A stretch of 54,867 nt of DNA from IMG/VR virus record IMGVR_UViG_3300043434_000561, positions 1 to 54,867 of that record; one strand, given 5' to 3'. Below are positions 3,036 to 47,021 of this stretch, piece by piece. Within the stretch, counting starts at the first letter, position 1, and each line of letters begins with the position of its first letter. The DNA comes from a virus. Taxonomy: Duplodnaviria; Caudoviricetes. The notes beneath the pieces are model-generated. The model saw nothing but the letters and a program-made list of their open reading frames with translations. It searched no databases and was not told the DNA's origin. A program made the position numbers and the translations under genes.

Positions 3036-3061
3036 GGGAAGCCTGATTCGACAGGGGATCT

Positions 3062-3418: not shown

Positions 3419-3450
3419 GCCTGTGAGAGAATTTCCCAACATTTTTTTAC

Positions 3451-3475
3451 ACCGCCTATTCCGGGCGGTTTTTTA
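3451..3475 (+). terminator. rho-independent terminator
   Basis: ACCGCC-TATTCCG-GGCGGT hairpin followed by a T-run. Confidence 0.65.
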
Positions 3476-3504
3476 ACGCGCAACGCGCAACCAAAGGAGA
3501 AGCC

Positions 3505-3945
3505 ATGCACTTACACGGACTTGCAAGACTCGGACGGGATATTGAACTGAGGGTGACACAAGACGGCACGCCCGTCGGTAATCTCGCCCTTGCTTTCAAC
3601 TATGGCCGCAAAGGCCAGGACGGCAAACGGCCAACGCAGTGGATCGACGCCTCGCTCTGGGGTGATCGGGTCGAGAAGCTCCAAAGCTACCTCGTCAAGG
3701 GTACGCAGATCAGCGTGATCCTGTCCGATCCGCACGTTGAAACCTACGAGAAAAAGGACGGCGGCACCGGCGTCAAGCTCGTGGCCCGGGTTGATGGTCT
3801 CGAGTTTGCATCCTCGCCAAGGGAAGCCGGCGAGCAGCGCTCTGCGGCAGGCGACTACCAGGCAGCCAGAGAAACCCGCGCACCGGCACCAAAGCCTGCG
3901 GCAAAGGCGGACTTTTCCGACCTCGACTCTGACATACCTTTTTAA
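3505..3945 (+). CDS. ssb: single-stranded DNA-binding protein
   Basis: OB-fold motifs (RLGRDIELR, WIDASLWG), acidic DSDIPF C-terminal tip, AAGGAG RBS. Confidence 0.95.
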   Translation: MHLHGLARLGRDIELRVTQDGTPVGNLALAFNYGRKGQDGKRPTQWIDASLWGDRVEKLQSYLVKGTQISVILSDPHVETYEKKDGGTGVKLVARVDGLEFASSPREAGEQRSAAGDYQAARETRAPAPKPAAKADFSDLDSDIPF

Positions 3946-3990
3946 GATGTATTCCGTTGTATAATCCACGGCAACTAAGAAAGGACTGCT

Positions 3991-4434
3991 ATGAAAGCCT
4001 GTAGTTGCTGTGGTGTTGTCAAGGAACCAACCGAATTTCAGGTTAGAAGGGCAAGCGCGGACGGGCTCACTGCATCTTGTAAAGCCTGCCTAAAAATACG
4101 AGACGCCACTCGTTACTTGAAGGAAAAGCCATACCGATCTTTGATGGCTAAGGCTTACAAAAAAACCGAGAACGGAAAGGCCGCTCACGCCAGAGCCGTC
4201 AAGGCTTGGAAGGAAAAGAACGCTTTGCGGAGGGCGGCACACGTAATTCTTGGCAATGCTGTTCGTGATGGGCGCGTCGCGCCGTTGCCGTGTCTTATTT
4301 GCGGCGAGAAAGCAGAAGCCCACCACCCAGACTATGACAGTCCGCTTAATGTCGTGTGGCTCTGCACGTCTCATCACAATGAGACGCACGCCATGGCGCG
4401 AAAACTAATGATGGGGGAAACCATAAGTGGCTGA
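3991..4434 (+). CDS. HNH-like zinc-finger endonuclease
   Basis: CSCC...CKAC finger and CLICG...EAHHPDYDSPLNVVWLCTSHH; lower GC; own TGTATAAT and AAGGA upstream. Confidence 0.75.
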   Translation: MKACSCCGVVKEPTEFQVRRASADGLTASCKACLKIRDATRYLKEKPYRSLMAKAYKKTENGKAAHARAVKAWKEKNALRRAAHVILGNAVRDGRVAPLPCLICGEKAEAHHPDYDSPLNVVWLCTSHHNETHAMARKLMMGETISG

Positions 4435-6005: not shown

Positions 6006-6535
6006 AAATAAACTACGCGCAAAAGCTTCTTGATCCTCGATGGCAGAAAAAGCGCCTCGAGGTGTTGGAGTCGGCAGAATGGTCTTGTGAGATGTGCGGT
6101 GACTCTCAATCGACACTGCACGTCCACCACAAGCAGTACATCAAGGGCCGCGATCCGTGGGAGTACAGCCGTGGCCAGCTCACTGTCTTGTGCCGGTCGT
6201 GCCATGGAAGCCATCACGACAAAGGAGAGGATGTTCTTTCTTTGGTTTCCTCATTCGCCGGAATGGATGGTCCTAAAAGCCGGAATGAGTGCGCCATGCT
6301 ATTGGCAGGGTTTCTCGGCCTCGACGGATTTGAGAACGAGAGCCCGGCAGCGTTGGCGATGTTAAAGATTGGAAAGCTCGCTTCCGAGATGGCGAAATTG
6401 AGGGGAGGAAGAACAATCACAGGCCAAGAAATTGCGGCTTTTTTTAAAGGCGAAATGGATGATCTAGCCAAGGCTTTTTCTTACGAACATCACGAAGTTC
6501 TTGAGTGGTTTTCGCGAAATATGTCGACGACGTGA
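6002..6535 (+). CDS. HNH-domain protein
   Basis: LLDPRWQKKRLEVLE...CEMCG...LHVHHKQY...LCRSCH. Confidence 0.8.
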   Translation: MKINYAQKLLDPRWQKKRLEVLESAEWSCEMCGDSQSTLHVHHKQYIKGRDPWEYSRGQLTVLCRSCHGSHHDKGEDVLSLVSSFAGMDGPKSRNECAMLLAGFLGLDGFENESPAALAMLKIGKLASEMAKLRGGRTITGQEIAAFFKGEMDDLAKAFSYEHHEVLEWFSRNMSTT

Positions 6536-6543
6536 GGCAACCG

Positions 6544-7305
6544 ATGAGCACAAAAATCTGGATGCCTCTCTACATCGCGGATTACCTGGCAGACACCACC
6601 AGGCTGACCACTGAGCAGCATGGCGCTTACATGCTGTTGATAATGGACTACTGGCGAAACGGCCCGCTGCCGAACGATGATGAAGCTCTTGCCAACATCA
6701 CAAGGTTGTCCACTGCTGCATGGAAAAAGCATCGAGCCGCGATGCTAAGGTTCTTCGATGAAAGCGGAGATCAGCTACGCCATGGACGCATCGACAAGGA
6801 ACTAAAAGACGCCTCCGAGAATGCCGAGAAGCATGCCGAGCGAGCAAGAAAAGCAGCCGCAAAACGGTGGGGCAAGGACACCACAAGCAATGCTACAAGC
6901 AATGCTACAAGCACACCCCAAGCAGTGCTTGATGAATGCCCTTCACCTTCACCTTCATCTAGTTCTATTCCTAACGGAATAGAAACACCTAACGCGAGCG
7001 AAATCCTGTTCGACCGTTTTTGGAAGGCTTACCCGAAGAAGGTCGGCAAAGAGGCGGCCAGGAAAGCCTTTTCCAAGGTCAAGCGACCGACCGAAACGAT
7101 CGAGATGATTACGGAAGCATTGGCGTGGCAAACCAAGTCCGAGCAATGGGTTCGTGACGGCGGTCAGTACATCCCGAACCCGGCCACATACCTGAACCAG
7201 GCCAGATGGATGGACGAGCCGCAGGCGTCGACAGCCCGCAAGGTTCCGGCGCGGGAAAACTTCGCCACAGCGGACTATGGCGAGCCTGGAGTGCATGACC
7301 TATGA
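6544..7305 (+). CDS. replication initiator (YdaU/DUF1376 family)
   Basis: WMPLYIADYLADTTRLTTEQHGAYMLLIMDYW; C-terminal FDRFWKAYPKKVGK...PNPATYLNQARW. Confidence 0.88.
   Translation: MSTKIWMPLYIADYLADTTRLTTEQHGAYMLLIMDYWRNGPLPNDDEALANITRLSTAAWKKHRAAMLRFFDESGDQLRHGRIDKELKDASENAEKHAERARKAAAKRWGKDTTSNATSNATSTPQAVLDECPSPSPSSSSIPNGIETPNASEILFDRFWKAYPKKVGKEAARKAFSKVKRPTETIEMITEALAWQTKSEQWVRDGGQYIPNPATYLNQARWMDEPQASTARKVPARENFATADYGEPGVHDL
6883..6931 (+). repeat. iterons / putative replication origin inside the initiator gene
   Basis: ACAAGCAATGCT x2 plus ACAAGCA and the palindrome CAAGCAGTGCTTG; lambdoid ori position. Confidence 0.65.
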
Positions 7306-32381: not shown

Positions 32382-35300
32382 GTGGCGAAAAATTCCTTCT
32401 TGCAGTCCCCGTTCGACAACATCACGCCTGCGGAGACGCTTCCAGGCCAGCAGACCCAAACGCCGCAAGAGCTACCGGAAATCCAGCAGACACCGGCTGC
32501 GGACACGCGCCAGCCCACCAAGGTCAACAACTTTCTGCCACCGGCAGACGTTCGGCCCATCTTCGAGGCGGCTGCCCAAGAGTTCGATGTTCCGGTCAAC
32601 GTGCTTATGGCGCTTGGCCACCAGGAGTCGCGCTACAACGCACAGGCCATTGGCCCGACAACCCAGTGGGGCCGCGCCAAGGGCATGATGCAATATCTCG
32701 ACAGCACCGCAAAGGGCATGGGCATTAACCCATTTGCTCCCGAGGAAGCTATCCCCGCCGCTGCCAAACAGATCCGCGAGCGCCTCGACAAGGGCTACTC
32801 GATGGAGGATGCCGTCAAGGAGCACTTTGCCGGGCCTGATCGCAAGCTGTGGGGGCCAAAAACCGACGCCTATGGCCGCGAGGTCATGCAAAAAGTCGGG
32901 ATGATTGGTGAAGCTCTTGGTACCGGAGAGGCCGGTGCGCCACAGCGCAACCTGCAAGCCGAATTGGATGCCGAGGAACCAGGCCGCTACCGCGTCATAA
33001 ACCCGGCTGACGACCGCCTTCTGTTCAGGCTGCAAGAGAATTTCGACGCCGAACAGATCGCCAAGAACGGGCTGCCGAAGCCGGAAGCCGCCAAAGCGCC
33101 GGAAGGGTTCATTGACCGCTCGAGCCAGGCTCTCAGCCGAGGCTACGACAACACGGTGCAAAACCTTGCGACGGCTCGCTTTGCCATTGGCGCCGGCGGT
33201 GACTCGGCTGAGCTCTCCGAAGCCCTGGCCAAGAAGTTTGCCGAAGAACAAAAGCGCACCAAGACAGCGGGCGAGAAAGAGATCGACGACGCTTTCCAGC
33301 GCGTCACGGACGCCAAGGGCGCATGGAACACAACCGTCGAGGGCTTGAAAGCCATTGGAACGGCGATCACGAACCCTGAAGATCTTGCCGTCGGAATCAT
33401 CGAGCAGACTCCCAACATGCTCCCCACTCTGGGCGCTGGTGCCGCAGGTGCCGGTGGCGGCGCTGCCGTCGGTGGCGTTATTGCCAATGTCCCGGGAGCA
33501 ATTACAGGCGCCATCATTGGTGGCCGCACCGGTATGGCGACAGGCACGACGGCAACCGAGCTTGGTGCCGAAGTCGAGCAGATGATCCTCGAGCGCCTGG
33601 GCGAAGCCAAGCAGGCTCCGACGGCTGCCAACATCAAGTCGCTTCTGGATGACAAGACGTTTCAATCCGAGGCTCTCGAGCGCGGATTGAAGAAGGGTTT
33701 GACGGTTGCTGCCGTCGATCAGATTTTCTTCGGCCTGACCGGGAAGGTGGCCGGGAAAGCGGCAACTGCGACGACAATCCCGAAGAAGATCGGCCTTGGC
33801 ACTGGGGCTGTCGCGCTCGATGCCACGGGTGAGGTTGCCGGTGAGGCAGCTTCGCAGAAGGTTGCACGAGGCGAGGTTGATGCCGGTGATGCGCTGCGCG
33901 AAGGCGTCTATGGCCTTGGCCAGTCCGTTGTCGAAACGGGTATCAGCGCTGCCGCACGCAGCGCCAAAGCCGCTGCCAACACTTTGCGCGGCGAGCCTGG
34001 TGCGCCTGCCCCCACATCCGACCCCACATCCACTCCACCAACCGCTACCGCACCGACGGCAACTCCGGCTCCTGCCGCCCCGGCTCCGCGCTCTGCCGCA
34101 TCCGGGCCGCTATCGCGCTCGATTGAGAACGCCGCCGAGAACAGCACTGCCGAGCAAGCACCGCCTCGTGTCACCGTCACGGCGCCGGAAGGTCAGATCA
34201 CCGGCTTCATGGAGTCGTACCAGGAGGACGGGCAGGGCGGTTTTGCCGCCCGCGTTCTGGGCGATGACGGCCAGGTGTACCAGTTCACCAGCGCCGATCA
34301 GGTTACGATTTCCCAGGAGCCAGCCGCGCCGCAGGCCGGTCCGCTGACGCAGGCGGTTGAAAAGGCCGCAGACGAGACAGTCGTTGCGCCCGTTCAGCCA
34401 GAGCCAACACAGACAGCACCGGCAGCACCGGCGGTTCAGATCGACAACAGCGCCGAGCGACTGGCCGAGATGACCGAGCCGCAACTCCGCGAGCGCCTCA
34501 AGTACATTGCCGACCAGGCCAAAGCCTCTGGCGGCTGGAACAAGCTGTTCGTGACTGAGCGCAAAAAAGTGGAGCGCGAGATCAACAGCCGCGCAAAGCC
34601 TGTCGAGCAAGCCGCCGATGTCATCCGCTTTAATGAGGGTAAACCCGAAGCCACCGCACTGCCAAAGGATTTGGCCGGAGCAAAGCCGCGTTACAGCTAC
34701 GGCAGCAAGCAATTCGACCTGACATTTGCCTCAGACTTTGACCGGGCCGCGTTCATCACCGCTCAGAAAGACCCGAGCTCGCGCAATGCCGACTATCTGA
34801 ACTTTGCCATGCAGGCGTCCGGTCTTAGCGAAGCCGAGGTGCGTGCCCATGGCCAGGCCGTAAAAGACGCCATCAAGTCGCAGGCCAAGGATGCCGAGCC
34901 CGGCACGCTGAACGTGCCAGAAATCGCTCGAGGCGCAGCCGCGCCAGAAGCGACGACGCAGGCCGAGCCTGCCCGCGACGAGCAAGCTGGCAAGTGGTTC
35001 GGCAGCCGCGAAAAGGCCGACGCCTACATTGCCAAGAAGAATATCAACGCAACGCACGAGATCGTGCAGACCGGCAAAGCACGTTTTGAAATTAAGCCCA
35101 AGGAGATCACCGATGGCAACAACCAACGTACCGTCGGGCAGCCCGATGGCGCAGAAGAAACACTCCAACAAGCCGATGCAGGACAAGCCCAGGGAGCCGC
35201 TGTTCAATCCGCTGTTGGACAGGATGAAGGACAAGCCGAAGTCGGCGTAACGTCCAATGTGGCCGAGCGCGAGAAACCTGAAACCCAAGAGGAACCGACC

Positions 35301-38300
35301 GATGGCACTCAAGCCACTCAAACCGAGCAAGCAGAAGCGCAAGGACAGGAAGCGCCTGCCAACACAAGCGTAACGCAAAGTCCGTTAAATCCTGAGTGGA
35401 ATCGCTTTACTTACAAAAGCGTTACGGTCGATTTTGCAACATCGCCAAACAACAAAGCTATTTCCGTTTACGACATAATTTCGTCAAGCCGCAGGTCTGG
35501 TGAAGCTAGAGAGGCTTTGCTCGAGCTAAAAAAGCGATACGAAACACTGCAAGCTGAGGGTGTGGTGGAGGATTCTGCCGAGGCAATCGCGTTCTGGCAG
35601 AGAATGTTAGACGAAGGCATAGCCGACAAGGCTGTGTTAACCGATGGCCGAACACTCGAGAAGGCACGTACACCCGCAGAGCTACAGCCAACTCAGACCG
35701 CCGCTGCCGTCAACGCACAATTTTCAAACAACAAGATCTTCACGGCCGACAAGGTTGAGGCCGCCCGCGCTCGCCTGAAATCCAAGCTGTCGCAGCTAAA
35801 CAGCGGAATCGACCCCGAGGTGATGATCGACGGCATGACGATTGCCGGAGCCTACATCGAGGGAGGCGTGCGCGAGTTCTCGGCATACGCCAAGGCGATG
35901 GTCGCGGACTTTGGCGACGCCATCAAGCCCTACCTGCTGTCGTTCTACGAGGGCGCCCGCAACTACCCTGGTTTGAACACGGAAGGCATGTCGAGCGTGG
36001 ATGACGCCAAGCGCATGCACTCCGGAATGATTACGCCTGCCGACACGCAGATCGAGGCAGTGGGCGAGATTGCCCAGAAGCCCGCCAAGCGCACCAAGAA
36101 AACCGGCGCGAAATCCGACATGACGCTGACCCAGGATTGGGGCGTCGATGCGATCAACGGATACAGCGACGACTACAACCGCGAGACCGGCAACACCGTC
36201 AAGGATGCTTTCCTCAAAGAGGCACGATCCTATCTGACCGCAGTAGCCGGTGTGCTGACAGAGCAGGGCTACACGCCTTACACGGACGCCAAGGGCCGAC
36301 CGGAAAAGATGGTGTCGGTCAACGAAAGCGGCATTGCCGGCAGTGGCGAGGTTACCCTGACTCTGGCCGGGCCCGATGGAATTGGCGCTTATGTCCACAT
36401 CTCCGAGTCCTCGCTTCGCGGTGTCGTGCCCACGACGCCAAGCGGCATTGCCATCATGTTCCGCGCTGCCAAGGAAGGCGACAAATTTGGTGGCAAAGGC
36501 CAGAACCGTTGGGCACCCGTTGACCTATCGGCAGCGGACCTCGCCGCGCTGGTAGATAAAACCGTCAAGGCAGAGGTGGCAAATGCCGCCAGACAGCCTA
36601 CAATCCCGCAAGGAGAACCGAGAAATGCAAACACTCCACAACCCGAAGGCGTACCCGCCGGAGATCCGCGAGGCGCTCAAGACAATGCCGCCGTTGGCGA
36701 TAGAAATCGCGAACAGATGGATCTTGGGCTGGCCGCAGGCGGTCAAGGAACTACTGAAAGCGGGCAGGTACCTGGAAGCGCTCAAGGCGCAGGAACGGGA
36801 GGAACGGGACGTGCTCAGCAGGCCGGGCAACAGCCACCTGGCGAGACACGAGATCGTGCAGGAGTACGGGCTGAGTCTGAGCCCACCGGAAGTGACACCG
36901 ACTTCGTAATCGACGCCGAGGACATCGGCAAAGGCGGTCTCACCAAAAAGTACCGCGACAACGTAGGCGCCATTCGCATCCTCAAGGCCATGGAAGCCGA
37001 GGGCAGGGTGGCGACCCCGGACGAGCGCAAGCAGCTTGCCAAGTATGTCGGATGGGGCGCCATGAAAGGCCCGTTCGACCCAGACAATAAGCAGTGGGCC
37101 AAGCAGCATGCCGAGCTCAAGGAGCTTTTAACGGACGCCGAATTTCGGGCCGCCCGCAAATCGACGCTTGACGCGCATTACACCAGCCCGATTGCCGTCG
37201 GCGCGATGTATGACGCCATGGCACGCCTGGGCTTTAACGGCGGTCGCGTGCTCGAGCCTTCCGTCGGTGTCGGCAACTTCTTTGGCCTGATGCCGGCCGC
37301 GATGCGCAATGCCTCGCAGCTTTTTGGTGTCGAGCTTGACTCGCTCACAAGCCGCATGGTGGCGGCGCTCTACCCCAAGGCCAACGTCGCCAAGGCCATC
37401 GGCTTTGAGGACTTCCAGATCCCGTCCGGCTATTTCGATGCCGTGATCGGCAATCCCCCCTTCGGCAGCCAGCCGCTTGTGGACTCCGAGCGCAGCCCGT
37501 ATTCGGGTTTCTCGATCCACAATTACTTCCTGGCCAAGGGCATCGACAAGCTGCGGCCAGGCGGCATCATGCAGGTTGTTGTGTCTCACAACTTCCTCGA
37601 TGCCAACGATGGACGCGCCCGCAAGTGGATCTCCGAGCGTGCCGACCTGATTGCAGGCGTGCGACTGCCCAACACGGCTTTCCAGGAAAACGCCGGAACG
37701 CAGGTTGTCACCGATATCTTGATCTTTCAAAAGCGCGAGCCTGGCGCAGCCGCCAAAAATTTATCGTGGGTCAATGTCGGCAACCAGACCAACACCAACC
37801 CCAAGACGGGCGAGACGGCCACTCACAAGGTCAATCAGTTCTTTATCGCCAATCCGCAGTTTGTCCTCGGCACCCCGTCGGCTGGCGGCACCATGTACAC
37901 AGCCAACGAGTACACGGTCGAGCCCAGTGGCGACTTGAAAGAGCAGCTTTCCGGGTGGGTCAAAACCATCCCTGAGAACGTCTATGCGCCGGTCGAGCGC
38001 AAGCCGGAAGCCATCACCGATATGGCCGTCCCGGACGGCATCAAGGTCGGATCGTTCTACGTGGACGCCAGCGGCGAGATCATGCAGCGCGGCGAAGATG
38101 TCATGGGCAACAAGACCACAAACCCATGGACCGCGCCAAACGCCAAAGCAGCCGAGCGCATGAAGGGCCTGATCGCTTTGCGCGAAGCCCTGCGCACGCA
38201 GATGCGCCTCGAGCGCTCGCTGGACTCGACGGAGGCCGCCATCGAGGCCAACCGGGCCGACTTGAACCGGCTCTATGACGCCTTCCTGAAAGCGCATGGC

Positions 38301-41300
38301 CACATCAACAGCCAGATGAACCGCAGGATCTTCCTCGACGATACGGAAGCCCAACTCGTTCAAGCGCTTGAGTTCGACTACGACAAGGGCATCAGCAAGG
38401 CCGTAGCCGAGCGTGAAGGCATCGAGCCCCGGGAGCCGAGCGCCACCAAGGCCGACATCTTCCAGCGCCGTGTCGCGTTCCCGCCGCAGGACTTTTTGAC
38501 CGTCAGCACCGCAAAAGACGCCTTGCTCGCCTCGTTGAACTATCGCGGCAAGGTGGACATGGCCTACATGGCCGAGGTCTACGGCAAGACCGACAAGGAG
38601 ATCTTCGACGAGCTCGGAGACGTTGTGTACGACGATCCGCTCTCGGGCATTGTGACGGCAGACGAGTATCTGTCGGGCGACGTTAAAACCAAGCTGGCCG
38701 AGGCGAAAGCCGCCGGAGCGAAATACCAGCGCAACGTCGAGGCGCTCGAGAAGGTCATCCCGGTAGACAAGAAGCCCTCCGAAATCTCGGTGAGCATCGG
38801 CGCGGCCTTTGTGCCGGCCGATGTCTATGAGCAGTTCGTCAAGCATATCTCGGGTGGCGAGGCCAAAGCGGCCTACGTGAAGGCGACCGGCCAGTGGGTC
38901 ATGTCGTTTACCGGCCAGACCGAGCCAGCGCTCAATGTCGGCAAGTTTGGCACCGATCAACTCTCGGCCCAGGATCTATTCCAGCTCAGCATGTTGGGCC
39001 GTGGCGCCGTGGTCAAGAAAACCATTCGCAATGCGGACGGTTCGACAACCACGATCCTCTTGGAAAAGGAAACCGAGGCCGCCCGCGAGAAGCAAAACGC
39101 CATTAAGGCCGAGTGGCAGTCCTGGCTTTGGAACGATGCAGCCCGCGCCGACCTGATCGCTTCGACCTACAACGACAAGATGAACCGGATTGTCGAGCGC
39201 AAGTATGACGGCTCGCACATGACGTTCCCAGGCATGAACCAGGCCATCAAGCTGTTGGAGCACCAGAAGAACGGTGTTTGGCGTGGGTTGCAGTCCTACC
39301 AGGTTCTCTACGATCACGTGGTTGGCGCCGGTAAGACCTTCGAGATGGCGACCCTCGCCATGGAGATGCGCCGCTTAGGCATTGCCCGCAAGCCTGTATT
39401 TGTGGTGCCGAACCACCTGACCCTGCAATGGCGCAGCGAGTTCACGCGCCTGTATCCGGGCTCCAACGTCCTGGCCGCAACGCCGGAGGATTTCTCCAAG
39501 GACAACCGCGAGCGCCTGTTCTCCAAGATCATCACCGGCGACTGGGATGCTGTCGTGATCGGCCATTCCTCGCTTAAGAAGATCGGCCTGCCGGAGGCAA
39601 CCGAGAAGGCTGTGCTGCAAGAGCAGATCGACGAGGTTGCTGCGGCCATCGAGGACATGAAGCGCCAGCGCGGCGACCGCAATATCATCCGCGATATGGA
39701 GGGCATCAGATCCCGGCTTGAAGCCCGGATGAAGGAGAAGCTCTCGGCTATCGGCAAGCGCTCGAAGGTCGTGACCTTCGATGAGCTCGGCCTCGATGCC
39801 ATGTTTGTGGACGAGATGCACGAGTTCAAAAACCTGTCCTACAACTCGACGATGGACCGCAACCCAGGCATGGGCAACCCGAACGGATCGGCCAAGGCTT
39901 TCGACCTGTTCGTAAAGGTCCGTTGGCTGTTCGACACCTTTGGCGAAAAGACGCCATTCATCACGGCGACCGGCACGCCAGTCTCGAATTCGCTGGTCGA
40001 GATGTACAACATGCAGCGCTACATGCAGTACCCAACCCTCAAGCGCGAGGGCCTGCATGTGTTCGATGCCTGGGCCAAACAGTTTGGCAGCGTCGAGAAC
40101 GTCTACGAGGTTGCGCCTTCCGGCAGCGGCTACCGCCAATCGACCCGGTTTGCCAAGTTCACCAACCTGCCGGGATTGATGAGCCTTTATAACTCCTTTG
40201 CCGACACGATCACGCTGGACGATCTCAAGGCTCAGGAAGAAGCCCAGGGCAAACGCTTTCCGGTTCCCAAAATGGTTGGCGGAAAGCCCCAGATCGTCGT
40301 GGCACAGCGTTCGCCTGCCGTCTCGAACCTGATGGGCGTTCCTACGGCCGAGACCGACGAAGCCGGAAATATCAAGTTCCTGGCCGATTTGAACGGCCAA
40401 ATCCTGATCGAGCAGAAGCCCGACACCGGCAAGTGGACCGCCAAGGTGGGCGAGTCTTATCTCGGGGAGTTTGAGACCGAGCAGGACGCCCGCATGAAGA
40501 TCGTCGAGCGGGCTGTGACGCCAGAGGTCAAGGTCGATCCCGAGTCGATCCTGGGCCGCTTTGGACGCCTGCGCGAGCTCACCAAGGAAACCAAGGGCAA
40601 GGTCAACGCCTTGTCGCTAACGGGCGAGGCCAACAAGGCCGGTCTCGACTATCGCCTGGTCAACCCTGCCGCGCCTGACTTCCCTGGCTCGAAGATCAAC
40701 CTGGCCGTGGATAACATGGTCCGGATTTACAAGCAGTGGGCCGGCGACAAGGGCACCCAACTGGTGTTCTGCGACCTGTCGATTCCGCTGTCTGCCCGCG
40801 CCAGCTATTCCAGCAAGGCCCGTCGCCTGTATGTGCGTGACGATGCCGGTTCGCTTGAGATGAAGCGCGGCACCATGCACACGCTCGAGGGGCAGGAGAG
40901 CCTGCCGTACTTCGTGGTGCAGCGGGGCGAGAAAGACCTCAAGCGGTTTGACGTTTACGACGCCGCCTCGGGCCGCCTGGTGGGCCGCGACTTCCGCGCC
41001 AAGCAAGATGCCATCGACGACGCCAACGCCAGGTTGGCCGACGAGAACCGCCGCCAGGCCTGGATCAACCAGCGCGAAACCGCTGGCGAGATCACGCAGG
41101 AAGCAATCGACGAGTACAACAACGACAACGACATCGAGGCCGACGGCATCGAGGCGTTTACCCGCGAGGACATTGCGGGCGTGTCGGGCGCCGCAAAATT
41201 CTCGGTCTACGATGACATCAAGGCCAAGCTGATCGCCAAGGGCATCCCCGAGCGCGAGATCGCTTTTATTCACGACTATTCGACACCCGCCGCCAAGGAC

Positions 41301-44300
41301 AAGCTATTCAAGGCCGTCAATTCCGGCGAGATCCGCTTCCTCTTGGGCTCCACTCCCAAAATGGGAGCCGGTACGAACGTCCAGAAGCGCCTGGTTGGCC
41401 TGCATCACATCGATGCGCCCTGGCGTCCAAGCGATCTTGAGCAGCGCGAAGGCCGGATCATTCGCCGCGGCAACGAGCTCTACGAGCGCAACCCCGACGG
41501 GTTTGAAGTGTTCATTGGCCGCTATGCTACTGAACAGACCTACGACACCCGCCGCTGGCAGATCCTCGAGCACAAGGCCCGTGGCATCGAGCAGCTTCGA
41601 AACTTCGACGGCTCAATTAACGAGATCGACGACATCGAGGGCGAGGCCGCCAACGCAGCCGACATGAAGGCGGCCGCTTCCGGCGATCCGCTGATCCTCG
41701 AGGAAACCCGCCTCAAGAACGACGTGCGCCGCCTCGAGCAGTTGCAGGCCGCTCACGCCGATGACGTTCTGGCCATGAACCGCAAGGCCAAGAGCGCCGA
41801 CGAATACGCCAAGGTCTCGGGTCCGCGCCAGTTGAAAGAGGTTAATGAGCTGATCGAGACGGTCAAAAAGAACCCCCTCGACAAGGAAGGGTTTGCACCC
41901 ATTACCGTGGACGGCAAGAAGTTTGCCGACAAGGAGAGCGCCCAGAAGGAAATCTTCGATGCGATGTCGCTGGTCCGGTCCAATCTGCGCCGCGAAGCAT
42001 CGATTGTTTACCGTGGCATCGAGTTCAATCTCTCGATTGGCTACGGAACGACGGTTGTTGCCGACTCTCCCACCGGAAACATCGGAACGTGGACCGCAGC
42101 CGAACCATTCTCGTCGAGCGGCTTTGTGCAGCGGATGGCCAACTACGCCAACCGCCTTCCATCGATGGCCGATAGCGTCAAGGACAACATCGAGAAATCC
42201 GCCCGTGACGCGGTAGCGCTGCGCGAGCAGGCCAAGGCTCCCTTCCAGCAAGCCGCAGATCTTGAAGCCACCCGCGAGGAATACAAGAAAGTGCAGCGTG
42301 CGCTCTTGGCCAAGGGTCCGGCAGTGCCGGAAAGCCAAAAGCCTGCGGTTGCCGCCGGTATCCAGGCCCAGAAGGCAAGGCTCGAGGCTCTCGGCTTTGG
42401 CGAGCAGCTCCGCGAGTTCTTCGACAACACCGAGGGCGAGGTTCGCTACTCGGTGCGAGACGACGGCTTGACCGAGGCTGAGTTTGGCCCGGTTTACACT
42501 GGACTTGACACTCCGGCAGCGATTGACCGCCTGATGGGCAATCAGTCGGGCGAGGCGATTGTCTCCCGTCCCGACCTTGGCGAGATCAGCTTGGTCTACG
42601 GCAACGGTAATGCCGGGTTGAAACACATCACCGCCCGCCATGGAAACGACATTCTGAACCGCCTGCCTGACCTTCTCGCCAACGGCAAGGTCTACACCAA
42701 GGACGGCCAGGCAAACCGGGTCTTTATTGGCAACGAGCGCGACGAGGCCGTGATTCGCCTCGACTGGAACGGCCAGGCTAAGACCTGGCTCCTGTCGGCT
42801 TACGAGAAATACCCCAACCTGAAAGCAGGGCAGGGGGCCGAAGTCTCCCGCCGTTCGCAGACAGTGGCCGAGCGCACGTCGGCTGGCTTGACGGCGGCAG
42901 GCGCCCGCCAGGCCGTGACGACCGGCATTGTCGGCCCCGTCATTAGCCGCCTGATCGACAACGGAAGTATCGTGCTGCACCAAACCACCAAGACCCTGCC
43001 GAAGGGAATTGGCGGCAACGTGCGCGGCATCCAAGCTGTCACGACACCAGACGGCAAGGTTCACCTGGTCGCCAGTGCCGTGACCCAACAGACGGCCCGC
43101 GCCGTTATGCTGCACGAGATGTTCCACAAGGGCGGCGAGCGACTGATCGGTTCGGTCGAGTGGAGCAAGCTCATGGGCCGCCTCGGCACACTCTACCGCC
43201 AGAGCGAGCAATCGACCGGACGCGCCCGTGAATTCTTTGACCGGGCCAGAGCCCGCGTGGCAGCCGCCAAGCGTCAGGGTGCCGTTGCGACCCGCATGGA
43301 GGTTGAGGAATTCGCAGCCTACGCCATCGAGGAATACGAGCGTGCGCCTCAAAGCCTGCCCGCTGCGATCCGCAAATGGGTTGAGGACTTAATCGGGCTG
43401 GTCAAGTCCTGGATGGTCAAGAGCTACGGCAAGCAGCTTGGCCAAGTGACGCCGGCGCAGTTGGCAGCCTTCGCCAAGTTCGCCGTCATGGACATGGCCG
43501 CCGAAAGGCGAAAGGAGATGTTTGGCCCGGTCGGGATGATGTTCTCCGCTGCCGATCCGATCAATTCTCCGGCCTTCAAGCGCTGGTTTGGTAAATCGAA
43601 GGTGGTGGACGCCAATGGCAAGCCGCTTGTGGTTTATCACGGCAGCCCGAGCGAGTTTTACAAGTTCGACCCCTATGCCTCAATGGACGGCGGCTTCTAC
43701 TTCACAGGAGACCGACGCCTTGCAGAGTCGTTTTCCAAGGACGAAGCCGGCGAGCGCATTACCCTGCATGAGGTGTACCTGAGTCTACAGAACCCCAAGA
43801 CAATTGACCTGCGCGGCGAGCAGCAGCCAGACCAAGACGCCATGCGCTCCATGTTTGAGCAGGCCAAGTCGGATGGGCATGACGGAGTTGTGTTGCTCAA
43901 TGTGCGCGAGTTTAACGGCACTGGAACGCAATACGTCGCCTTCCGCCCCGAGCAGATCAAATCCGCCATCGGCAACGACGGCAGCTTTGACCCGACGAAC
44001 CCAGACATTCGCTATTCGGTGAGCCCTGAGCAGGCCGACGCCATGATCGACGAGGCAAGCAAGGCGCTCGACGAGACCGGCCCGGCTGCCAAGGAGGACT
44101 ATATCGGGCGCGTGGTGGGCGACATGTCCCTGGGTGCCCGCCTGATTGTGCATCCAAGAACGGTTGCCGCTGTTCACCCGGAGTTCACGCCGGTCTACCG
44201 CACCGCCATCTCGCAGATGGAAACCCGTGACGAGATCATTGCGGACCTAGGCAAAGACGTAACGGCCTACCACCAGCTTCCGCAGGCCAGCAAAGAGAAT

Positions 44301-47021
44301 GTCAACAAGGCGCTTGAGCTTGGACGCCTGACCTCGACGGTGTTCTCGAAAGAGGCGCTGGCCGGTGGCGTGACCAATACCGGCACGCGCAAGGTTGTCG
44401 TCATTGACGAGAAAGGCAAACCGAAAACCGCAGAGGTTCCGGTCAATGCGCTTCTGTCCGTCAAAGGCGAGATTATCAAGCTCACCGACGCAGAGATCGC
44501 CGCATACCAAGACCTGCGCTCGATGTTTGATCGTGCTCTGGACCTGATGCGCGACCAGACGCTCGAGGAACTGGGCTTTGCCGAGTTCATCAATCAGCCA
44601 AACGCCGCCAAGGCGATCCGTGAGCTAATTACCGACCAGACCCCGGCCGACCAGGCCGAACGGCTGAGCAACATCGCAAGCTTTGTCGCTGAGATCGAGC
44701 AGGCCAAGCGGGCCGGATATGTGCCGTTTGCCCGGTATGGCGATTACGTCGTAACGGTCAAAGAGAAGATTGCCGATCTCGAGTACGCCGAGGACAGCGC
44801 CTCTCACCTGATCGTGACGAACGCGCCCGAGTCGTTTGCCGATGAAATGCTGTCTCTCGGTGCCGAGCAGACCAAAGAGGGATGGCGGATCAAGAAGTCT
44901 CAAAAGAAGGACGTTGAGCGCCTGACCGAGCAGACCGTCTATTCCGCCAAGGTCGAAACCGGCCTCACGGACTTCATGGCCGAGCGACGCGCTCAGAACG
45001 TGGACGACATTCCGGCCGTCAAGGCAGCGATTGAAAAGGCCCGCACCGAGCATGTCGGGAATAACCCTCGCCGTCGGATCGTAGCCTTTAAGACCCGCGA
45101 GAAGAAGGCAGACACCCAGGTTCGGCTCTCCGATGTCGATGCCTTGGCCGAGGTGGCCTCGATTGACAACGCGACGTGGGATGCCGTTCGCGACAAGCTG
45201 GCCGACGCCATCAAGGCCCGCAGCTTCCGCAAGCACTTCTTTCATTCCGACAACGTGCCCGGATACACCGGAGACTTTGAGCGATCGATCTCGGACTACG
45301 TGATCGGCATGGCCGGCTACCTTTCGCGCCGCCAGCACATGAAGCGGTGGGATAACACGGTGTCGGCGGTTGAGGCAAAGCCCAAGCTGTTCCAGTACGC
45401 CTCGAAATACCGGGAGTATGTGAACAACCCGCAGGAAGAACTGGCGATGGTGCGCCAGATCGGTTTCTTCTCGTACATCGCCGGTGTCATGGCCACGGCC
45501 TTTGCCAACCTGACGCAGGTGCCGCTCATGACGGTGCCGACCCTTTCTCAGGTTGCCCCGGTCCCGCTGGTCGTCAAGGAAACCGTCAGGGCGTACAAAG
45601 ACGCCATCGCCATGTTGGGCAAGCCGTCTCGCGTTGGGCTCGATATGTTCGATCCCAACAAGGCTCCGGCAGACGTGCGCGAGGCTCTGAAAGAGGCCTG
45701 GGCCGAAGGGGCTTTCGTTCCGCTCGAAACCTTCGACCTGATGATGACGGCCCGGCAGCGCAACGTCGGTACTCGAAAAGGCGTCAAGGCGTTCAACACG
45801 GCAACCCAGGTTGTCGCGGTGGCCTTCACGTTTGCCGAGCGCATGAACCGCCTGGTGACGTTCATCGCGGCCGCACGCCTGGCCGATAAGCGGGCTGTCC
45901 GGGAGAGTGCAACCAAGACCCTTGGCGGCGATGCGCTTGCCCGCCAGACGGTCCTGGGACGCAACTGGACGCCGAAAAACTTTGCCGAATGGGCCATTGA
46001 CGAGTCGCAATACCGCATGGGCAAGGCCAACCGCCCGACCATGATGCGTGGCGTCGGCTCCGCCATCATGCAGTTTAAGGGCTTCATGCTTCAGACCTTT
46101 GAAGCCTGGTACCGCATGACGGCCCTGCATGGTCGCTCCGGCAAGTTTGCGGCGGCATCCTCGATCATGGCCCTTTACGCAATGGCCGGTCTTTGGGGAT
46201 TGCCTGGTGCGGAGGATCTTCGCAAGCTGCTCGAGGCGATCTACAAGCAGATCACCAAGAAGGATCTCGATCTCAAGACCGAGCTTCGCGCCTGGATTGC
46301 CAGAACGTCGGGCAGCAACGCCATCGGGCAGATCGTCTCCAAGGGCGTGAGCTACCCGCTTGGCGTGGACATGACGCGGGTTGGTATGGGCAATGTGGTG
46401 CCGGATTCGCCACTCGCCGCAGCCGGTATCCCGTTCGATATGCTGATCGGCCGCCCGACACGAGCGTTTGAGAAGGGGTCGTCCGGGGATTACGCGGGAG
46501 CCGTGGCGGAGTTTACGCCAAACTTCATGAAGAACATGATCGTGTCCGGTGGCTGGAAGGTTGATGGCGTCAGGGACAAGCAGGGCAACCGCATCCTTGC
46601 GCCGGAGGACTTATCGGGGGCCGACCTGGCCATGCGGGCAACCGGCTTCCAGCCGTCGATTGTGACGGACGTGCGCGATTATGAGTACGCGCAGCGCCGC
46701 CAGGAGACAGCCGTTGACGGGTTGAAGCGCAGCTACACCAACAAGATCGCCAAAACCATTGCCGAGATGGATCGGACTGAAGATCCCGAGAAGCTCAGGG
46801 AGCTCGATCAGCGCCTCGACGAAATCTATGCCGACATCGACGAGCACAACGCCAAGGCCGATCCCGAGCAGGTTATCAAGATCGGCGTGCGGGCGATCCG
46901 CAACCGCGTGGCGCGTGAAATGGAAGGCGTTAAATCGACGTGGGGCCAGGAGCGCAAGGCTGCCAGGGGCTCGGCTGAGGAACTGCGCGGCGTGTTCGGG
47001 CTAGATGAGGACGATGAGTAG
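32382..47021 (+). CDS. giant DarB-like polyvalent virion protein (SLT, N6-adenine MTase, SNF2 helicase, RNase-like, HExxH peptidase, ART-like, PLxRFG)
   Basis: HQESRYN/GMMQ (SLT); VLEPSVGVGNF and NPPF (MTase); HVVGAGKT, DEMH, PWRPSDLEQREGR (SF2); GLKHITARH..WLLSAY; LHEMFH; VYHGS..FYFT; YVPFARYG. Confidence 0.92.
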   Translation: MAKNSFLQSPFDNITPAETLPGQQTQTPQELPEIQQTPAADTRQPTKVNNFLPPADVRPIFEAAAQEFDVPVNVLMALGHQESRYNAQAIGPTTQWGRAKGMMQYLDSTAKGMGINPFAPEEAIPAAAKQIRERLDKGYSMEDAVKEHFAGPDRKLWGPKTDAYGREVMQKVGMIGEALGTGEAGAPQRNLQAELDAEEPGRYRVINPADDRLLFRLQENFDAEQIAKNGLPKPEAAKAPEGFIDRSSQALSRGYDNTVQNLATARFAIGAGGDSAELSEALAKKFAEEQKRTKTAGEKEIDDAFQRVTDAKGAWNTTVEGLKAIGTAITNPEDLAVGIIEQTPNMLPTLGAGAAGAGGGAAVGGVIANVPGAITGAIIGGRTGMATGTTATELGAEVEQMILERLGEAKQAPTAANIKSLLDDKTFQSEALERGLKKGLTVAAVDQIFFGLTGKVAGKAATATTIPKKIGLGTGAVALDATGEVAGEAASQKVARGEVDAGDALREGVYGLGQSVVETGISAAARSAKAAANTLRGEPGAPAPTSDPTSTPPTATAPTATPAPAAPAPRSAASGPLSRSIENAAENSTAEQAPPRVTVTAPEGQITGFMESYQEDGQGGFAARVLGDDGQVYQFTSADQVTISQEPAAPQAGPLTQAVEKAADETVVAPVQPEPTQTAPAAPAVQIDNSAERLAEMTEPQLRERLKYIADQAKASGGWNKLFVTERKKVEREINSRAKPVEQAADVIRFNEGKPEATALPKDLAGAKPRYSYGSKQFDLTFASDFDRAAFITAQKDPSSRNADYLNFAMQASGLSEAEVRAHGQAVKDAIKSQAKDAEPGTLNVPEIARGAAAPEATTQAEPARDEQAGKWFGSREKADAYIAKKNINATHEIVQTGKARFEIKPKEITDGNNQRTVGQPDGAEETLQQADAGQAQGAAVQSAVGQDEGQAEVGVTSNVAEREKPETQEEPTDGTQATQTEQAEAQGQEAPANTSVTQSPLNPEWNRFTYKSVTVDFATSPNNKAISVYDIISSSRRSGEAREALLELKKRYETLQAEGVVEDSAEAIAFWQRMLDEGIADKAVLTDGRTLEKARTPAELQPTQTAAAVNAQFSNNKIFTADKVEAARARLKSKLSQLNSGIDPEVMIDGMTIAGAYIEGGVREFSAYAKAMVADFGDAIKPYLLSFYEGARNYPGLNTEGMSSVDDAKRMHSGMITPADTQIEAVGEIAQKPAKRTKKTGAKSDMTLTQDWGVDAINGYSDDYNRETGNTVKDAFLKEARSYLTAVAGVLTEQGYTPYTDAKGRPEKMVSVNESGIAGSGEVTLTLAGPDGIGAYVHISESSLRGVVPTTPSGIAIMFRAAKEGDKFGGKGQNRWAPVDLSAADLAALVDKTVKAEVANAARQPTIPQGEPRNANTPQPEGVPAGDPRGAQDNAAVGDRNREQMDLGLAAGGQGTTESGQVPGSAQGAGTGGTGRAQQAGQQPPGETRDRAGVRAESEPTGSDTDFVIDAEDIGKGGLTKKYRDNVGAIRILKAMEAEGRVATPDERKQLAKYVGWGAMKGPFDPDNKQWAKQHAELKELLTDAEFRAARKSTLDAHYTSPIAVGAMYDAMARLGFNGGRVLEPSVGVGNFFGLMPAAMRNASQLFGVELDSLTSRMVAALYPKANVAKAIGFEDFQIPSGYFDAVIGNPPFGSQPLVDSERSPYSGFSIHNYFLAKGIDKLRPGGIMQVVVSHNFLDANDGRARKWISERADLIAGVRLPNTAFQENAGTQVVTDILIFQKREPGAAAKNLSWVNVGNQTNTNPKTGETATHKVNQFFIANPQFVLGTPSAGGTMYTANEYTVEPSGDLKEQLSGWVKTIPENVYAPVERKPEAITDMAVPDGIKVGSFYVDASGEIMQRGEDVMGNKTTNPWTAPNAKAAERMKGLIALREALRTQMRLERSLDSTEAAIEANRADLNRLYDAFLKAHGHINSQMNRRIFLDDTEAQLVQALEFDYDKGISKAVAEREGIEPREPSATKADIFQRRVAFPPQDFLTVSTAKDALLASLNYRGKVDMAYMAEVYGKTDKEIFDELGDVVYDDPLSGIVTADEYLSGDVKTKLAEAKAAGAKYQRNVEALEKVIPVDKKPSEISVSIGAAFVPADVYEQFVKHISGGEAKAAYVKATGQWVMSFTGQTEPALNVGKFGTDQLSAQDLFQLSMLGRGAVVKKTIRNADGSTTTILLEKETEAAREKQNAIKAEWQSWLWNDAARADLIASTYNDKMNRIVERKYDGSHMTFPGMNQAIKLLEHQKNGVWRGLQSYQVLYDHVVGAGKTFEMATLAMEMRRLGIARKPVFVVPNHLTLQWRSEFTRLYPGSNVLAATPEDFSKDNRERLFSKIITGDWDAVVIGHSSLKKIGLPEATEKAVLQEQIDEVAAAIEDMKRQRGDRNIIRDMEGIRSRLEARMKEKLSAIGKRSKVVTFDELGLDAMFVDEMHEFKNLSYNSTMDRNPGMGNPNGSAKAFDLFVKVRWLFDTFGEKTPFITATGTPVSNSLVEMYNMQRYMQYPTLKREGLHVFDAWAKQFGSVENVYEVAPSGSGYRQSTRFAKFTNLPGLMSLYNSFADTITLDDLKAQEEAQGKRFPVPKMVGGKPQIVVAQRSPAVSNLMGVPTAETDEAGNIKFLADLNGQILIEQKPDTGKWTAKVGESYLGEFETEQDARMKIVERAVTPEVKVDPESILGRFGRLRELTKETKGKVNALSLTGEANKAGLDYRLVNPAAPDFPGSKINLAVDNMVRIYKQWAGDKGTQLVFCDLSIPLSARASYSSKARRLYVRDDAGSLEMKRGTMHTLEGQESLPYFVVQRGEKDLKRFDVYDAASGRLVGRDFRAKQDAIDDANARLADENRRQAWINQRETAGEITQEAIDEYNNDNDIEADGIEAFTREDIAGVSGAAKFSVYDDIKAKLIAKGIPEREIAFIHDYSTPAAKDKLFKAVNSGEIRFLLGSTPKMGAGTNVQKRLVGLHHIDAPWRPSDLEQREGRIIRRGNELYERNPDGFEVFIGRYATEQTYDTRRWQILEHKARGIEQLRNFDGSINEIDDIEGEAANAADMKAAASGDPLILEETRLKNDVRRLEQLQAAHADDVLAMNRKAKSADEYAKVSGPRQLKEVNELIETVKKNPLDKEGFAPITVDGKKFADKESAQKEIFDAMSLVRSNLRREASIVYRGIEFNLSIGYGTTVVADSPTGNIGTWTAAEPFSSSGFVQRMANYANRLPSMADSVKDNIEKSARDAVALREQAKAPFQQAADLEATREEYKKVQRALLAKGPAVPESQKPAVAAGIQAQKARLEALGFGEQLREFFDNTEGEVRYSVRDDGLTEAEFGPVYTGLDTPAAIDRLMGNQSGEAIVSRPDLGEISLVYGNGNAGLKHITARHGNDILNRLPDLLANGKVYTKDGQANRVFIGNERDEAVIRLDWNGQAKTWLLSAYEKYPNLKAGQGAEVSRRSQTVAERTSAGLTAAGARQAVTTGIVGPVISRLIDNGSIVLHQTTKTLPKGIGGNVRGIQAVTTPDGKVHLVASAVTQQTARAVMLHEMFHKGGERLIGSVEWSKLMGRLGTLYRQSEQSTGRAREFFDRARARVAAAKRQGAVATRMEVEEFAAYAIEEYERAPQSLPAAIRKWVEDLIGLVKSWMVKSYGKQLGQVTPAQLAAFAKFAVMDMAAERRKEMFGPVGMMFSAADPINSPAFKRWFGKSKVVDANGKPLVVYHGSPSEFYKFDPYASMDGGFYFTGDRRLAESFSKDEAGERITLHEVYLSLQNPKTIDLRGEQQPDQDAMRSMFEQAKSDGHDGVVLLNVREFNGTGTQYVAFRPEQIKSAIGNDGSFDPTNPDIRYSVSPEQADAMIDEASKALDETGPAAKEDYIGRVVGDMSLGARLIVHPRTVAAVHPEFTPVYRTAISQMETRDEIIADLGKDVTAYHQLPQASKENVNKALELGRLTSTVFSKEALAGGVTNTGTRKVVVIDEKGKPKTAEVPVNALLSVKGEIIKLTDAEIAAYQDLRSMFDRALDLMRDQTLEELGFAEFINQPNAAKAIRELITDQTPADQAERLSNIASFVAEIEQAKRAGYVPFARYGDYVVTVKEKIADLEYAEDSASHLIVTNAPESFADEMLSLGAEQTKEGWRIKKSQKKDVERLTEQTVYSAKVETGLTDFMAERRAQNVDDIPAVKAAIEKARTEHVGNNPRRRIVAFKTREKKADTQVRLSDVDALAEVASIDNATWDAVRDKLADAIKARSFRKHFFHSDNVPGYTGDFERSISDYVIGMAGYLSRRQHMKRWDNTVSAVEAKPKLFQYASKYREYVNNPQEELAMVRQIGFFSYIAGVMATAFANLTQVPLMTVPTLSQVAPVPLVVKETVRAYKDAIAMLGKPSRVGLDMFDPNKAPADVREALKEAWAEGAFVPLETFDLMMTARQRNVGTRKGVKAFNTATQVVAVAFTFAERMNRLVTFIAAARLADKRAVRESATKTLGGDALARQTVLGRNWTPKNFAEWAIDESQYRMGKANRPTMMRGVGSAIMQFKGFMLQTFEAWYRMTALHGRSGKFAAASSIMALYAMAGLWGLPGAEDLRKLLEAIYKQITKKDLDLKTELRAWIARTSGSNAIGQIVSKGVSYPLGVDMTRVGMGNVVPDSPLAAAGIPFDMLIGRPTRAFEKGSSGDYAGAVAEFTPNFMKNMIVSGGWKVDGVRDKQGNRILAPEDLSGADLAMRATGFQPSIVTDVRDYEYAQRRQETAVDGLKRSYTNKIAKTIAEMDRTEDPEKLRELDQRLDEIYADIDEHNAKADPEQVIKIGVRAIRNRVAREMEGVKSTWGQERKAARGSAEELRGVFGLDEDDE
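35113..35250 (+). CDS. nested +1-frame ORF A (45 aa)
   Basis: AAGGAG RBS; MATTNVPSGSPMAQKKHSNKPMQDKPREPLFNPLLDRMKDKPKSA. Confidence 0.5.
   Translation: MATTNVPSGSPMAQKKHSNKPMQDKPREPLFNPLLDRMKDKPKSA
35302..35373 (+). CDS. nested +1-frame ORF B (23 aa, very basic)
   Basis: GAGGA RBS; MALKPLKPSKQKRKDRKRLPTQA. Confidence 0.4.
   Translation: MALKPLKPSKQKRKDRKRLPTQA
36625..36909 (+). CDS. nested +1-frame ORF C (94 aa, globular)
   Basis: AAGGAG RBS (alternative in-frame start at 36583 with GAGGTG); G/C-ending codons in the nested frame; protein-like composition AIEIANRWILGWP. Confidence 0.72.
   Translation: MQTLHNPKAYPPEIREALKTMPPLAIEIANRWILGWPQAVKELLKAGRYLEALKAQEREERDVLSRPGNSHLARHEIVQEYGLSLSPPEVTPTS

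Follow-up and report, generated by a model that had tools for sequence, protein, structure and literature searches.

Nested open reading frames in the giant gene

Can a gene for a multi-domain virion protein also carry small genes of its own in a second reading frame? This question is raised by a DarB-like gene in the 54,867-nucleotide (nt) stretch of viral DNA analysed here (IMG/VR record IMGVR_UViG_3300043434_000561, Duplodnaviria; Caudoviricetes; hereafter, the window), in which three open reading frames (ORFs), designated ORF1, ORF2, and ORF3, lie inside the 14.6-kb giant gene. We consider, with a probability of about 0.8, that all three are true small genes, overprinted on the inter-domain spacers of the giant gene and read in its +1 frame, and the situation is more general than the initial annotation of this DNA had proposed. 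The comparative signal is far above chance for ORF3 and ORF2 and moderately above chance for ORF1.

A frame check bore out the layout described in the initial annotation, i.e., three ORFs that are all in the +1 frame at the positions given in Table 1, and each of them is preceded by a well-spaced Shine-Dalgarno (SD) sequence. The low-complexity linker that the giant frame was said to form over the nested ORFs is evident both in the translation, which is rich in G/Q/A/E/T across all three, and in the GC content by giant codon position, which rises to 0.75-0.86 at position 1 and falls to 0.38-0.52 at position 3, against 0.63/0.44/0.75 for the whole giant gene. The usual coding signature of high GC at third positions thus falls in the +1 frame over the nested ORFs. 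Among the +1-frame ORFs of the giant gene, which was scanned over its full length, 16 start with ATG, encode at least 20 amino acids, and are preceded by any SD-like 4-mer, some of them being alternative starts of one ORF; ORF1 to ORF3 are the only ones that are located in spacers and whose products are protein-like or conserved. The same scan found no SD-preceded ATG ORFs of at least 20 amino acids in the +2 frame.

The idea that the nested frame carries the constraint was likewise sustained. The ratio of nonsynonymous to synonymous change (dN/dS or pN/pS), which the initial annotation had suggested comparing in both frames, amounts, for ORF3, ORF1, and the Pavtok-type ORF described below, to 0.35 to 0.5 in the +1 frame and to 1.3 to 1.7 in the giant frame, i.e., purifying selection acts in the +1 frame. 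Start codons are mostly kept among the homologues, and SD-like motifs precede 26 of the 37 distinct nested ORF3 contexts and 56 of the 64 ORF2 contexts, compared with a background frequency of 9.4% at other in-frame positions.

At each ORF, purifying selection would act on the small frame, and all that is required of the giant frame would be the absence of stop codons and a flexible spacer of low complexity. Translation of the small proteins most likely starts internally on the late mRNA of the giant gene, where each of them has its own SD sequence and start codon, and the spacer of the giant protein may be the evolutionarily younger or freer reading of the DNA.

Table 1. Positions of the giant gene, its nested ORFs, and associated features in the window
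Feature	Position	Strand	Description and basis
Giant polyvalent virion (DarB-like) gene, host of the nested ORFs	32382..47021	+	4879 amino acids; ORF list
Spacer 1 of the giant protein	35097..35396	+	Acidic, Q/A/E/G/T-rich; overprinted by ORF1 and ORF2; translation and GC shift
SD of ORF1	35100..35105	+	AAGGAG, 7 nt 5' of ATG
ORF1	35113..35250	+	45-amino-acid basic peptide (isoelectric point 10.1); nested, +1 frame of the giant gene
SD of ORF2	35289..35293	+	GAGGA, 8 nt 5' of ATG
ORF2 micro-gene	35302..35373	+	23-amino-acid very basic peptide (isoelectric point 11.8), MALKPLKPSKQKRKDRKRLPTQA; nested, +1 frame
Spacer 2 of the giant protein	36595..36905	+	G/A/Q/P/R-rich; overprinted by ORF3; translation and GC shift
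SD of ORF3	36610..36615	+	AAGGAG, 9 nt 5' of ATG
ORF3	36625..36909	+	94-amino-acid all-helical protein (AlphaFold2 model), invariant motifs EIANRWxLGWP and HL..E; nested, +1 frame
Methyltransferase-helicase module, N-terminal part, 3' of ORF3	36879..38078	+	Alignment A3

Conservation and structure of the ORF3 family

ORF3 is almost certainly a real gene. A search with its 108-amino-acid open frame returned 98 relatives at E ≤ 0.01 among 103 candidates (43 to 85% identity, most of them 89 to 98 amino acids long), and a profile search of 1.84 billion representatives returned 136 clusters, counted at 50% identity, at E ≤ 1e-3 and 79 at E ≤ 1e-10. The aligned proteins share a Met-Gln start, which corresponds to position 36625 of the window, and a C-terminal end L-S-P-P, and the two motifs given in Table 1 are invariant across the alignment. 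Standalone ORF3 proteins, which are encoded where the giant frame is closed, start at the identical Met-Gln. The aligned start codon is ATG in nearly every listed locus, and GTG in L022 and L058 (loci are designated by L numbers). In a distant subfamily, ADRWAxGWP replaces EIANRWxLGWP, and its members show 34 to 52% identity to the first member (alignment A2).

Selection was examined on a 92-column core of 36 distinct nested coding sequences, including that of the window (630 pairs). The median dN/dS is 0.35 in the nested frame, 1.69 in the giant frame, and 0.99 in the third frame, with mean amino acid identities of 58%, 37%, and 40%, respectively, and the column entropy by nested codon position is 0.80/0.65/1.15. 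Six loci were excluded from the later steps: L065, which is partial at a contig end; L024, L025, and L029, which failed the motif or start rule; L030, which is cut by a contig end; and L031, which contains an X.

The AlphaFold2 model of ORF3, calculated from the alignment, is a confident one and consists of five helices with a predicted local distance difference test (pLDDT) score of 82 and a predicted template modeling (pTM) score of 0.71. Searches of Pfam found no match to ORF1, ORF2, or ORF3, the last not even at E ≤ 10; those of PHROGs found none to ORF3 or ORF1, and those of NCBIfam and PADLOC none to ORF3 and its distant relatives. The ORF3 profile has no match among PDB sequences (best E = 0.17), and its model has none in the PDB by Foldseek at E ≤ 0.001, none in BFVD, and no lead in the VIA wide fold search (best Z = 4.8); in the ESM Atlas only unnamed clusters were found. 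Five proteins contain longer ORF3 forms of 169 to 264 amino acids, and none of them is an in-frame fusion with a giant protein, which is weak evidence.

A weak sigma-70-like site (GTGGCA-17-TACAAT, 9/12) is located upstream of the ORF3 SD at positions 36576-36604 of the window; the promoter scan found 1 such site against 0.7 expected, i.e., chance level.

Genomic setting of ORF3

Related DNA was drawn from phage records, viral contigs, and genomes. In all seven loci of the first set and in 47 of the 59 related loci, some of which are one contig present in two collections, the ORF3 homologue is nested at +1 within a long open frame, which extends over 1.8 to more than 11 kb. Pseudomonas stutzeri phage 8P (ORF3 homologue at MT152150, 31545-31820) and prophages of Variovorax and Acinetobacter genomes provide examples of the nested state, and all three viral contigs of the ADRW subfamily have the same +1 nesting in a giant frame together with an SD-like motif.

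The module that follows ORF3 is constant. An N-terminal methyltransferase motif, "..IGKGG..KYRDN.AAI..LK...YVGWG", is present within approximately 10 to 70 amino acids after the end of ORF3 in 22 of the 22 loci that have at least 1.2 kb of downstream sequence (L041 is too short), in a divergent form in L023, and the methyltransferase modules are 49 to 77% identical to that of the window over 400 amino acids (alignment A3, 22 sequences). The domains upstream of ORF3 vary among the loci. The supposition in the initial annotation that the nested gene moves with one domain is thus upheld for ORF3: in phages, the family is almost only in the nested position directly 5' of the methyltransferase-helicase module, and the nested state is old and tied to this one module. 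A co-fold of ORF3 with the 400-amino-acid N-terminal region of the methyltransferase scored 0.00, which is evidence neither for nor against an interaction. In Bcep22, the giant gene is present and no ORF3 match was found.

The 12 standalone copies are in an integrative-element context without a giant gene. Their neighbours encode uncharacterised membrane proteins, primase-helicases (Toprim, AAA_25, PriCT_2, DUF927), a T5orf172 protein, and topoisomerase III. In a maximum-likelihood tree of 61 rows (midpoint root, many forks open), nine standalone sequences fall in three places inside nested clades, and the standalone copies may be escapes from the nested state.

Three of the standalone relatives (L013, L014, and L015) have an extra acidic C-terminal extension of approximately 50 amino acids. 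In these loci, ORF3 is downstream of a signal-peptide/transmembrane protein of approximately 335 to 346 amino acids that has no Pfam family, and is near a divergent primase-helicase.

A sister family in the same spacer

The same spacer was inspected in phages that have no ORF3 match. Erwinia phage Pavtok has a 105-amino-acid +1 ORF in this slot, which belongs to a family of 16 protein clusters and was found by tblastn in 21 phage records. The carriers include Erwinia phages Pavtok, PEp14, and Stean; Klebsiella phages SopranoGao, LASTA, and SJM3; Pseudomonas phage Itty13; Agrobacterium phage Atu_ph08; Vibrio phage VvAW1; Sinorhizobium phage PBC5; Ochrobactrum phage POI1126; and Microcystis phage Mwe-JY07. 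That standard annotation would miss such genes had been anticipated in the initial annotation, and it does: only the giant coding sequence (CDS) is annotated over the nested ORF in phage 8P, and in the 21 sister-family records the ORF is covered only by the giant CDS or, in some records, by a "hypothetical protein" CDS, and never has an annotation of its own.

The sister ORF is nested in the +1 frame in six of the seven records checked, the exception being PBC5. In comparisons of seven sequences (21 pairs), the nested frame has a pN/pS of 0.51 and an identity of 55%, compared with 1.32 and 37% for the giant frame. The Pavtok ORF resembles the Pfam family TnpV (PF14198) at E = 1.8e-4 and 21.9 bits, which is under the 27-bit cut-off, and TnpV matches were obtained for 8 of the 16 family members (best E = 1.2e-4, all below the cut-off; alignment A4). 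TnpV is a transposon-encoded protein for which the papers found give no established function. Similar to ORF3 and the sister family, it is a small helical protein of approximately 90 to 110 amino acids on mobile elements, and it differs from ORF3 in that ORF3 itself does not match Pfam.

The two families may be remotely homologous. Alignment of the ORF3 profile with sister-family profiles by hhalign gave probabilities of 1.5% and 10.7%, and reciprocal hidden Markov model matches are weak, at 10 to 14 bits in a consistent register, with 10 of 16 at E < 0.01. The models have a similar helix order and share the register W-x4-P, G-x-L, long helix, and L-(S/F)-P-P. A fold search of the PDB with the sister-family model found nothing.

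A third type of +1 nested ORF is located before the methyltransferase module of Pseudomonas phage vB_PaeM_USP_18 (L139) at positions 6290-6643. It encodes 117 amino acids (MNNLQMALKIKAERKK...), and tblastn detected it in USP_18 and USP_25 alone; Pfam gave no match, and its profile resembles that of the ADRW subfamily only weakly (probability 7.9%).

Two of the sister-family records are unusual in their gene arrangement. In Itty13 (L156; NC_070969, 5527-8823), two annotated "hypothetical protein" CDSs are on the strand opposite to the methyltransferase/nested-ORF frame, and this region has probably been annotated on the wrong strand. The giant gene of PBC5 (L154; NC_003324, 24724-27963) is in two pieces: the upstream one terminates with the TnpV-like segment, which is read in its frame, and the downstream one opens in the other frame approximately 270 nt earlier. 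Either the isoforms are really arranged in this way or the sequence, which is an old one, contains an indel.

ORF2 and ORF1

ORF2 is probably a real gene. The peptide MALKPLKPSKQKRKDRKR... is seen again in several of the loci that were ascertained through ORF3, with changes concentrated at +1 third positions. A degenerate pattern of its core, in which wobble was allowed only at the +1 third positions, was found in 72 viral contigs (73 matches including the window, 67 distinct contexts, 64 of them full-length), and all contexts are inside a giant frame that is open for at least 1149 nt. At the start position, six codons 5' of the core, the 64 full-length contexts have GTG in 26, ATG in 22, TTG in 14, and ACG and ATA in one each. 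This spectrum forces radical D/G/V-type changes in the giant frame; CTG does not occur in any of the 64, although an ordinary A/S/P/T residue would result there. The entropies by +1 codon position in the flanks of the core are 0.83/0.29/1.15 and 0.76/0.95/1.26, and further 5' of ORF2 the entropy is flat at approximately 1.5, with no conservation. A +1 stop codon is located 0 to 1 codons 5' of the start in 9 of the 64 contexts, and the length is 21 to 28 codons in 57 of them. In contigs of other phages from the same metagenomes, the alignment is limited to the interval from 35302-35308 through approximately 35345-35360, and the upstream sequence is unrelated and contains GGAG-type motifs. A cultured carrier is vB_PaeM_USP_18, which has a 36-amino-acid ORF with an SD-like motif. 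The ORF2 region has no match in Rfam, and its RNA fold is no better than that of shuffled sequences (z = -0.81); blastn of the ORF2 block against phages gave no match, probably as a result of the low-complexity filter.

For ORF1, the balance tips slightly towards a real gene. Its homologues in L032, L140, L141, L142, and L144 encode basic peptides of 37 to 45 amino acids. Among the loci compared first, ORF1 was present only in the closest relative; L140 to L144 were found by scanning metagenomes with the giant-frame domain upstream of ORF1 and by one more pattern scan. All six sequences, including that of the window, start with ATG directly after the "...FE(I/V)KPK" domain or an equivalent spacer start, and a GGAG-type motif precedes the start in four of the five homologues and in the window. 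Over 35 codons of the five sequences that could be aligned without gaps, the +1 frame has a pN/pS of 0.48 and an amino acid identity of 73%, compared with 1.66 and 57% for the giant frame.

The metagenome contig L142 has both an ORF2-type and an ORF1-type micro-ORF in one giant gene, in two different spacers (approximately 3000-4270), and the two peptide families are therefore not simple alternatives.

Alternative explanations and possible function

The peculiar composition of the spacers might by itself give rise to such ORFs. They would then be by-products of acidic, T-poor, low-complexity sequence, in which K-E and D-G dipeptides of the giant frame accidentally yield AAGGAG and ATG, and their conservation would merely be at the nucleotide level or due to recent common descent. 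This argument is valid for ORF1 and ORF2, the basic peptides of which mirror the acidic giant spacers; the +1 frame is naturally stop-poor in the spacers, the ORF1 sequences are few, related, and without third-position skew, and ORF2 or ORF1 is missing from several related lineages. It leaves unexplained, however, ORF3, which is a structured family of 136 clusters with standalone members and a nested dN/dS far below that of the giant frame. At ORF2, the substitutions are at +1 third positions, which are the first positions of giant codons, and the giant third positions are the least variable, i.e., the reverse of a gene that is read in the giant frame only. The start-codon spectrum and conserved length of ORF2, as well as the lack of any RNA family or structure in the searches described above, also argue against an origin from composition, which we regard as extremely unlikely. 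Hardly more probable is that ribosomes reach the +1 segments by programmed +1 frameshifting, so that these segments are not separate genes and form alternative C-terminal ends of truncated giant isoforms. The SD-like motif upstream of each segment could serve as the stimulator, the sister ORF of PBC5 is in frame with the upstream giant piece and ends it, and the +1 frame is open for some codons 5' of the starts in many loci. Nevertheless, true start codons are kept (ATG, GTG, or TTG in 62 of the 64 ORF2 contexts, never CTG, and ATG in nearly all ORF3 loci), and a +1 stop is located just before the ORF2 start in nine contexts. Standalone ORF3 proteins share the Met-Gln start, the SD spacing of 7 to 9 nt is that of initiation, and conservation begins at the start codon, with no conserved slippery site seen.

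A much stronger contender, although still short of even odds, accepts that ORF3, and perhaps ORF1 and ORF2, is real and makes it independent of the giant protein: a moron-type accessory gene of mobile elements, e.g., a regulator or anti-defence factor, that lodged in a tolerant spacer or was swallowed at the fusion of two virion genes, and was kept by tolerance and by expression from the late mRNA. The 12 standalone loci in integrative elements fit this explanation, as do the weak similarity of the sister family to TnpV, which is named from conjugative transposons, the different domain that follows the sister ORF in Atu_ph08 and PBC5, and the giant genes of Bcep22 and like relatives, in which no ORF3 match was found. 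Against it, all 22 of the loci compared have ORF3 in the slot directly before the methyltransferase module, even though the subfamilies are only approximately 35 to 45% identical and the upstream domains change, and the standalone copies lie within nested clades and look derived, with a midpoint root only.

Several observations weigh against reading ORF1 to ORF3 as overprinted genes of the giant protein, or against parts of that reading. The open +1 frame is no evidence in itself, because the T-poor acidic composition of the spacers keeps it open. Standard dN/dS is biased where frames overlap, and the compared sequences are kin, so that binomial p-values for the SD motifs overstate independence. 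For ORF2, the degenerate pattern confines the unbiased test to the flanks, the start is lost in two contexts (ACG and ATA), and several related lineages are without the ORF. The case for ORF1 consists of five related sequences in which the variable columns are not skewed by codon position (17/13/17). The runs listed as containing the window sequence are DNA metagenome runs only, with no RNA run among them. As to function, the library and fold searches gave no homology or fold support for ORF3. The closed giant frame at 12 of 59 loci, i.e., relatives that exist without a giant gene, and the PBECR-like nuclease domain, instead of the methyltransferase, after the sister ORF in Atu_ph08 and PBC5 (two of seven records checked) speak against a strict helper role.

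With these reservations, overprinted genes remain our preferred reading, and ORF3 may tentatively be given an accessory role tied to the methyltransferase-helicase module or to the giant protein, such as its folding, its packaging, or keeping it inactive in the producing cell. This role is favoured because ORF3 is inherited with the module across deep divergence; the odds between it and an independent role on mobile elements are roughly equal. A bolder and rather doubtful proposal is that giant injected polyvalent proteins carry dedicated out-of-frame partners in their own spacers, each of which would control the folding or packaging of the neighbouring domain or its silencing in the producing cell, so that domain and controller recombine between phages as a single cassette. 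Candidates for such partners are the basic peptides ORF1 and ORF2 as well as the TnpV-like/ORF3 superfamily, and the standalone copies would be captured controllers that disarm an incoming methyltransferase-helicase.

Comparison with known systems

Overprinting as such is well known; the Rz1 gene is read in the +1 frame, and phiX174 provides further examples. The o-spanin gene Rz1 of lambda is entirely coded within the i-spanin gene, an arrangement termed overprinting (bioRxiv 10.1101/2022.06.14.493971). Similar to Rz/Rz1, each nested ORF of the window is a small gene with its own start that is fully enclosed by a larger gene of the same strand and read in another frame; containment, a conserved start with a ribosome-binding site, and purifying selection in the nested frame were all found. 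Unlike Rz/Rz1, the host is a 14.6-kb multi-domain virion gene that contains three nested ORFs of unrelated families, all of them confined to disordered spacers in which the host frame has almost no constraint, and the partnership with the host product is putative. In Bcep22, an embedded Rz1-like gene is annotated.

The giant gene is of the same kind as those of the polyvalent proteins (Iyer et al. 2017, PMC5512222) and the DarB-like gp75 of Bcep22-like phages. Its product unites SLT, N6-methyltransferase (N6-adenine type), SNF2-type (SNF2/ResIII) helicase, PBECR1, and ART-PolyVal domains in one large polypeptide that is associated with the virion, and the gene is part of a virion module. In the available main text of PMC5512222, the words "overlapping", "frameshift", "linker", and "TnpV" do not occur, and the accessible text on phage JC1 (PMC9144972) mentions no nested genes for gp69. 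No literature linking nested or overlapping genes to DarB-like or polyvalent proteins was found in the main texts searched, and the occurrence of overprinting in this gene class does not appear to have been noted before.

The initial annotation drew an analogy with Ulx of P1, a 17-kDa protein listed with "Aids DarB localization" in a table of PMC9024508. Both would be small proteins serving a DarB-type virion protein, and the likeness is conceptual: ulx is a separate gene downstream of darB, not nested, and the analogy fails both in this position and in sequence. As a candidate homologue of ORF3, Ulx was rejected at an hhalign probability of 0.65% over 13 aligned columns. A motif scan of P1 darB did not reveal an internal nested equivalent.

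Annotation pipelines forbid fully nested genes, which makes a conserved small-protein family invisible in many sequenced phages, including cultured phages of Erwinia, Klebsiella, Pseudomonas, Agrobacterium, Vibrio, Ochrobactrum, and Microcystis. The hidden set comprises the 136 ORF3-type clusters, the sister family, and two families of basic peptides. It offers a clean natural case of the persistence of overprinting, in which one frame is informative and the other is only an open, disordered spacer, as well as testable candidates for factors that fold, package, or restrain injected anti-restriction proteins of several thousand residues. In phage engineering, spacer changes that are "silent" in the giant frame may damage the hidden genes.

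Other features of the window

The window represents a temperate phage or prophage and originates from a freshwater metagenome. The giant gene is its largest gene and lies downstream of genes for a portal, a major head protein, a tail fibre, and an internal virion protein; an integrase and recombination exonucleases are also encoded. The Pfam domains of the giant protein are SLT transglycosylase, N6_Mtase/Eco57I, ResIII, Helicase_C, PBECR1 nuclease, and ART-PolyVal, and the gene is similar to the "DarB-like antirestriction" giants of Bcep22-like, Ralstonia, Erwinia, and Pseudomonas phages. A blastn search of a plasmid collection with the region gave no match, and a microdiversity check saw no variants among contigs of the same region.

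Just past spacer 1, the first approximately 90 amino acids of the giant frame ("WNRFTYKSVTVDF...IADKAV", positions 35397-35670) have a low GC content at all codon positions (0.38-0.58). This segment is not matched in the related loci, whose similarity begins at approximately residues 76 to 95 of it, and it looks like a recently acquired module. On the minus strand of the giant gene, several long antisense ORFs of 341 to 579 amino acids are present between positions 32472 and 46130, and they look like the usual artefacts of a gene with GC-rich third codon positions.

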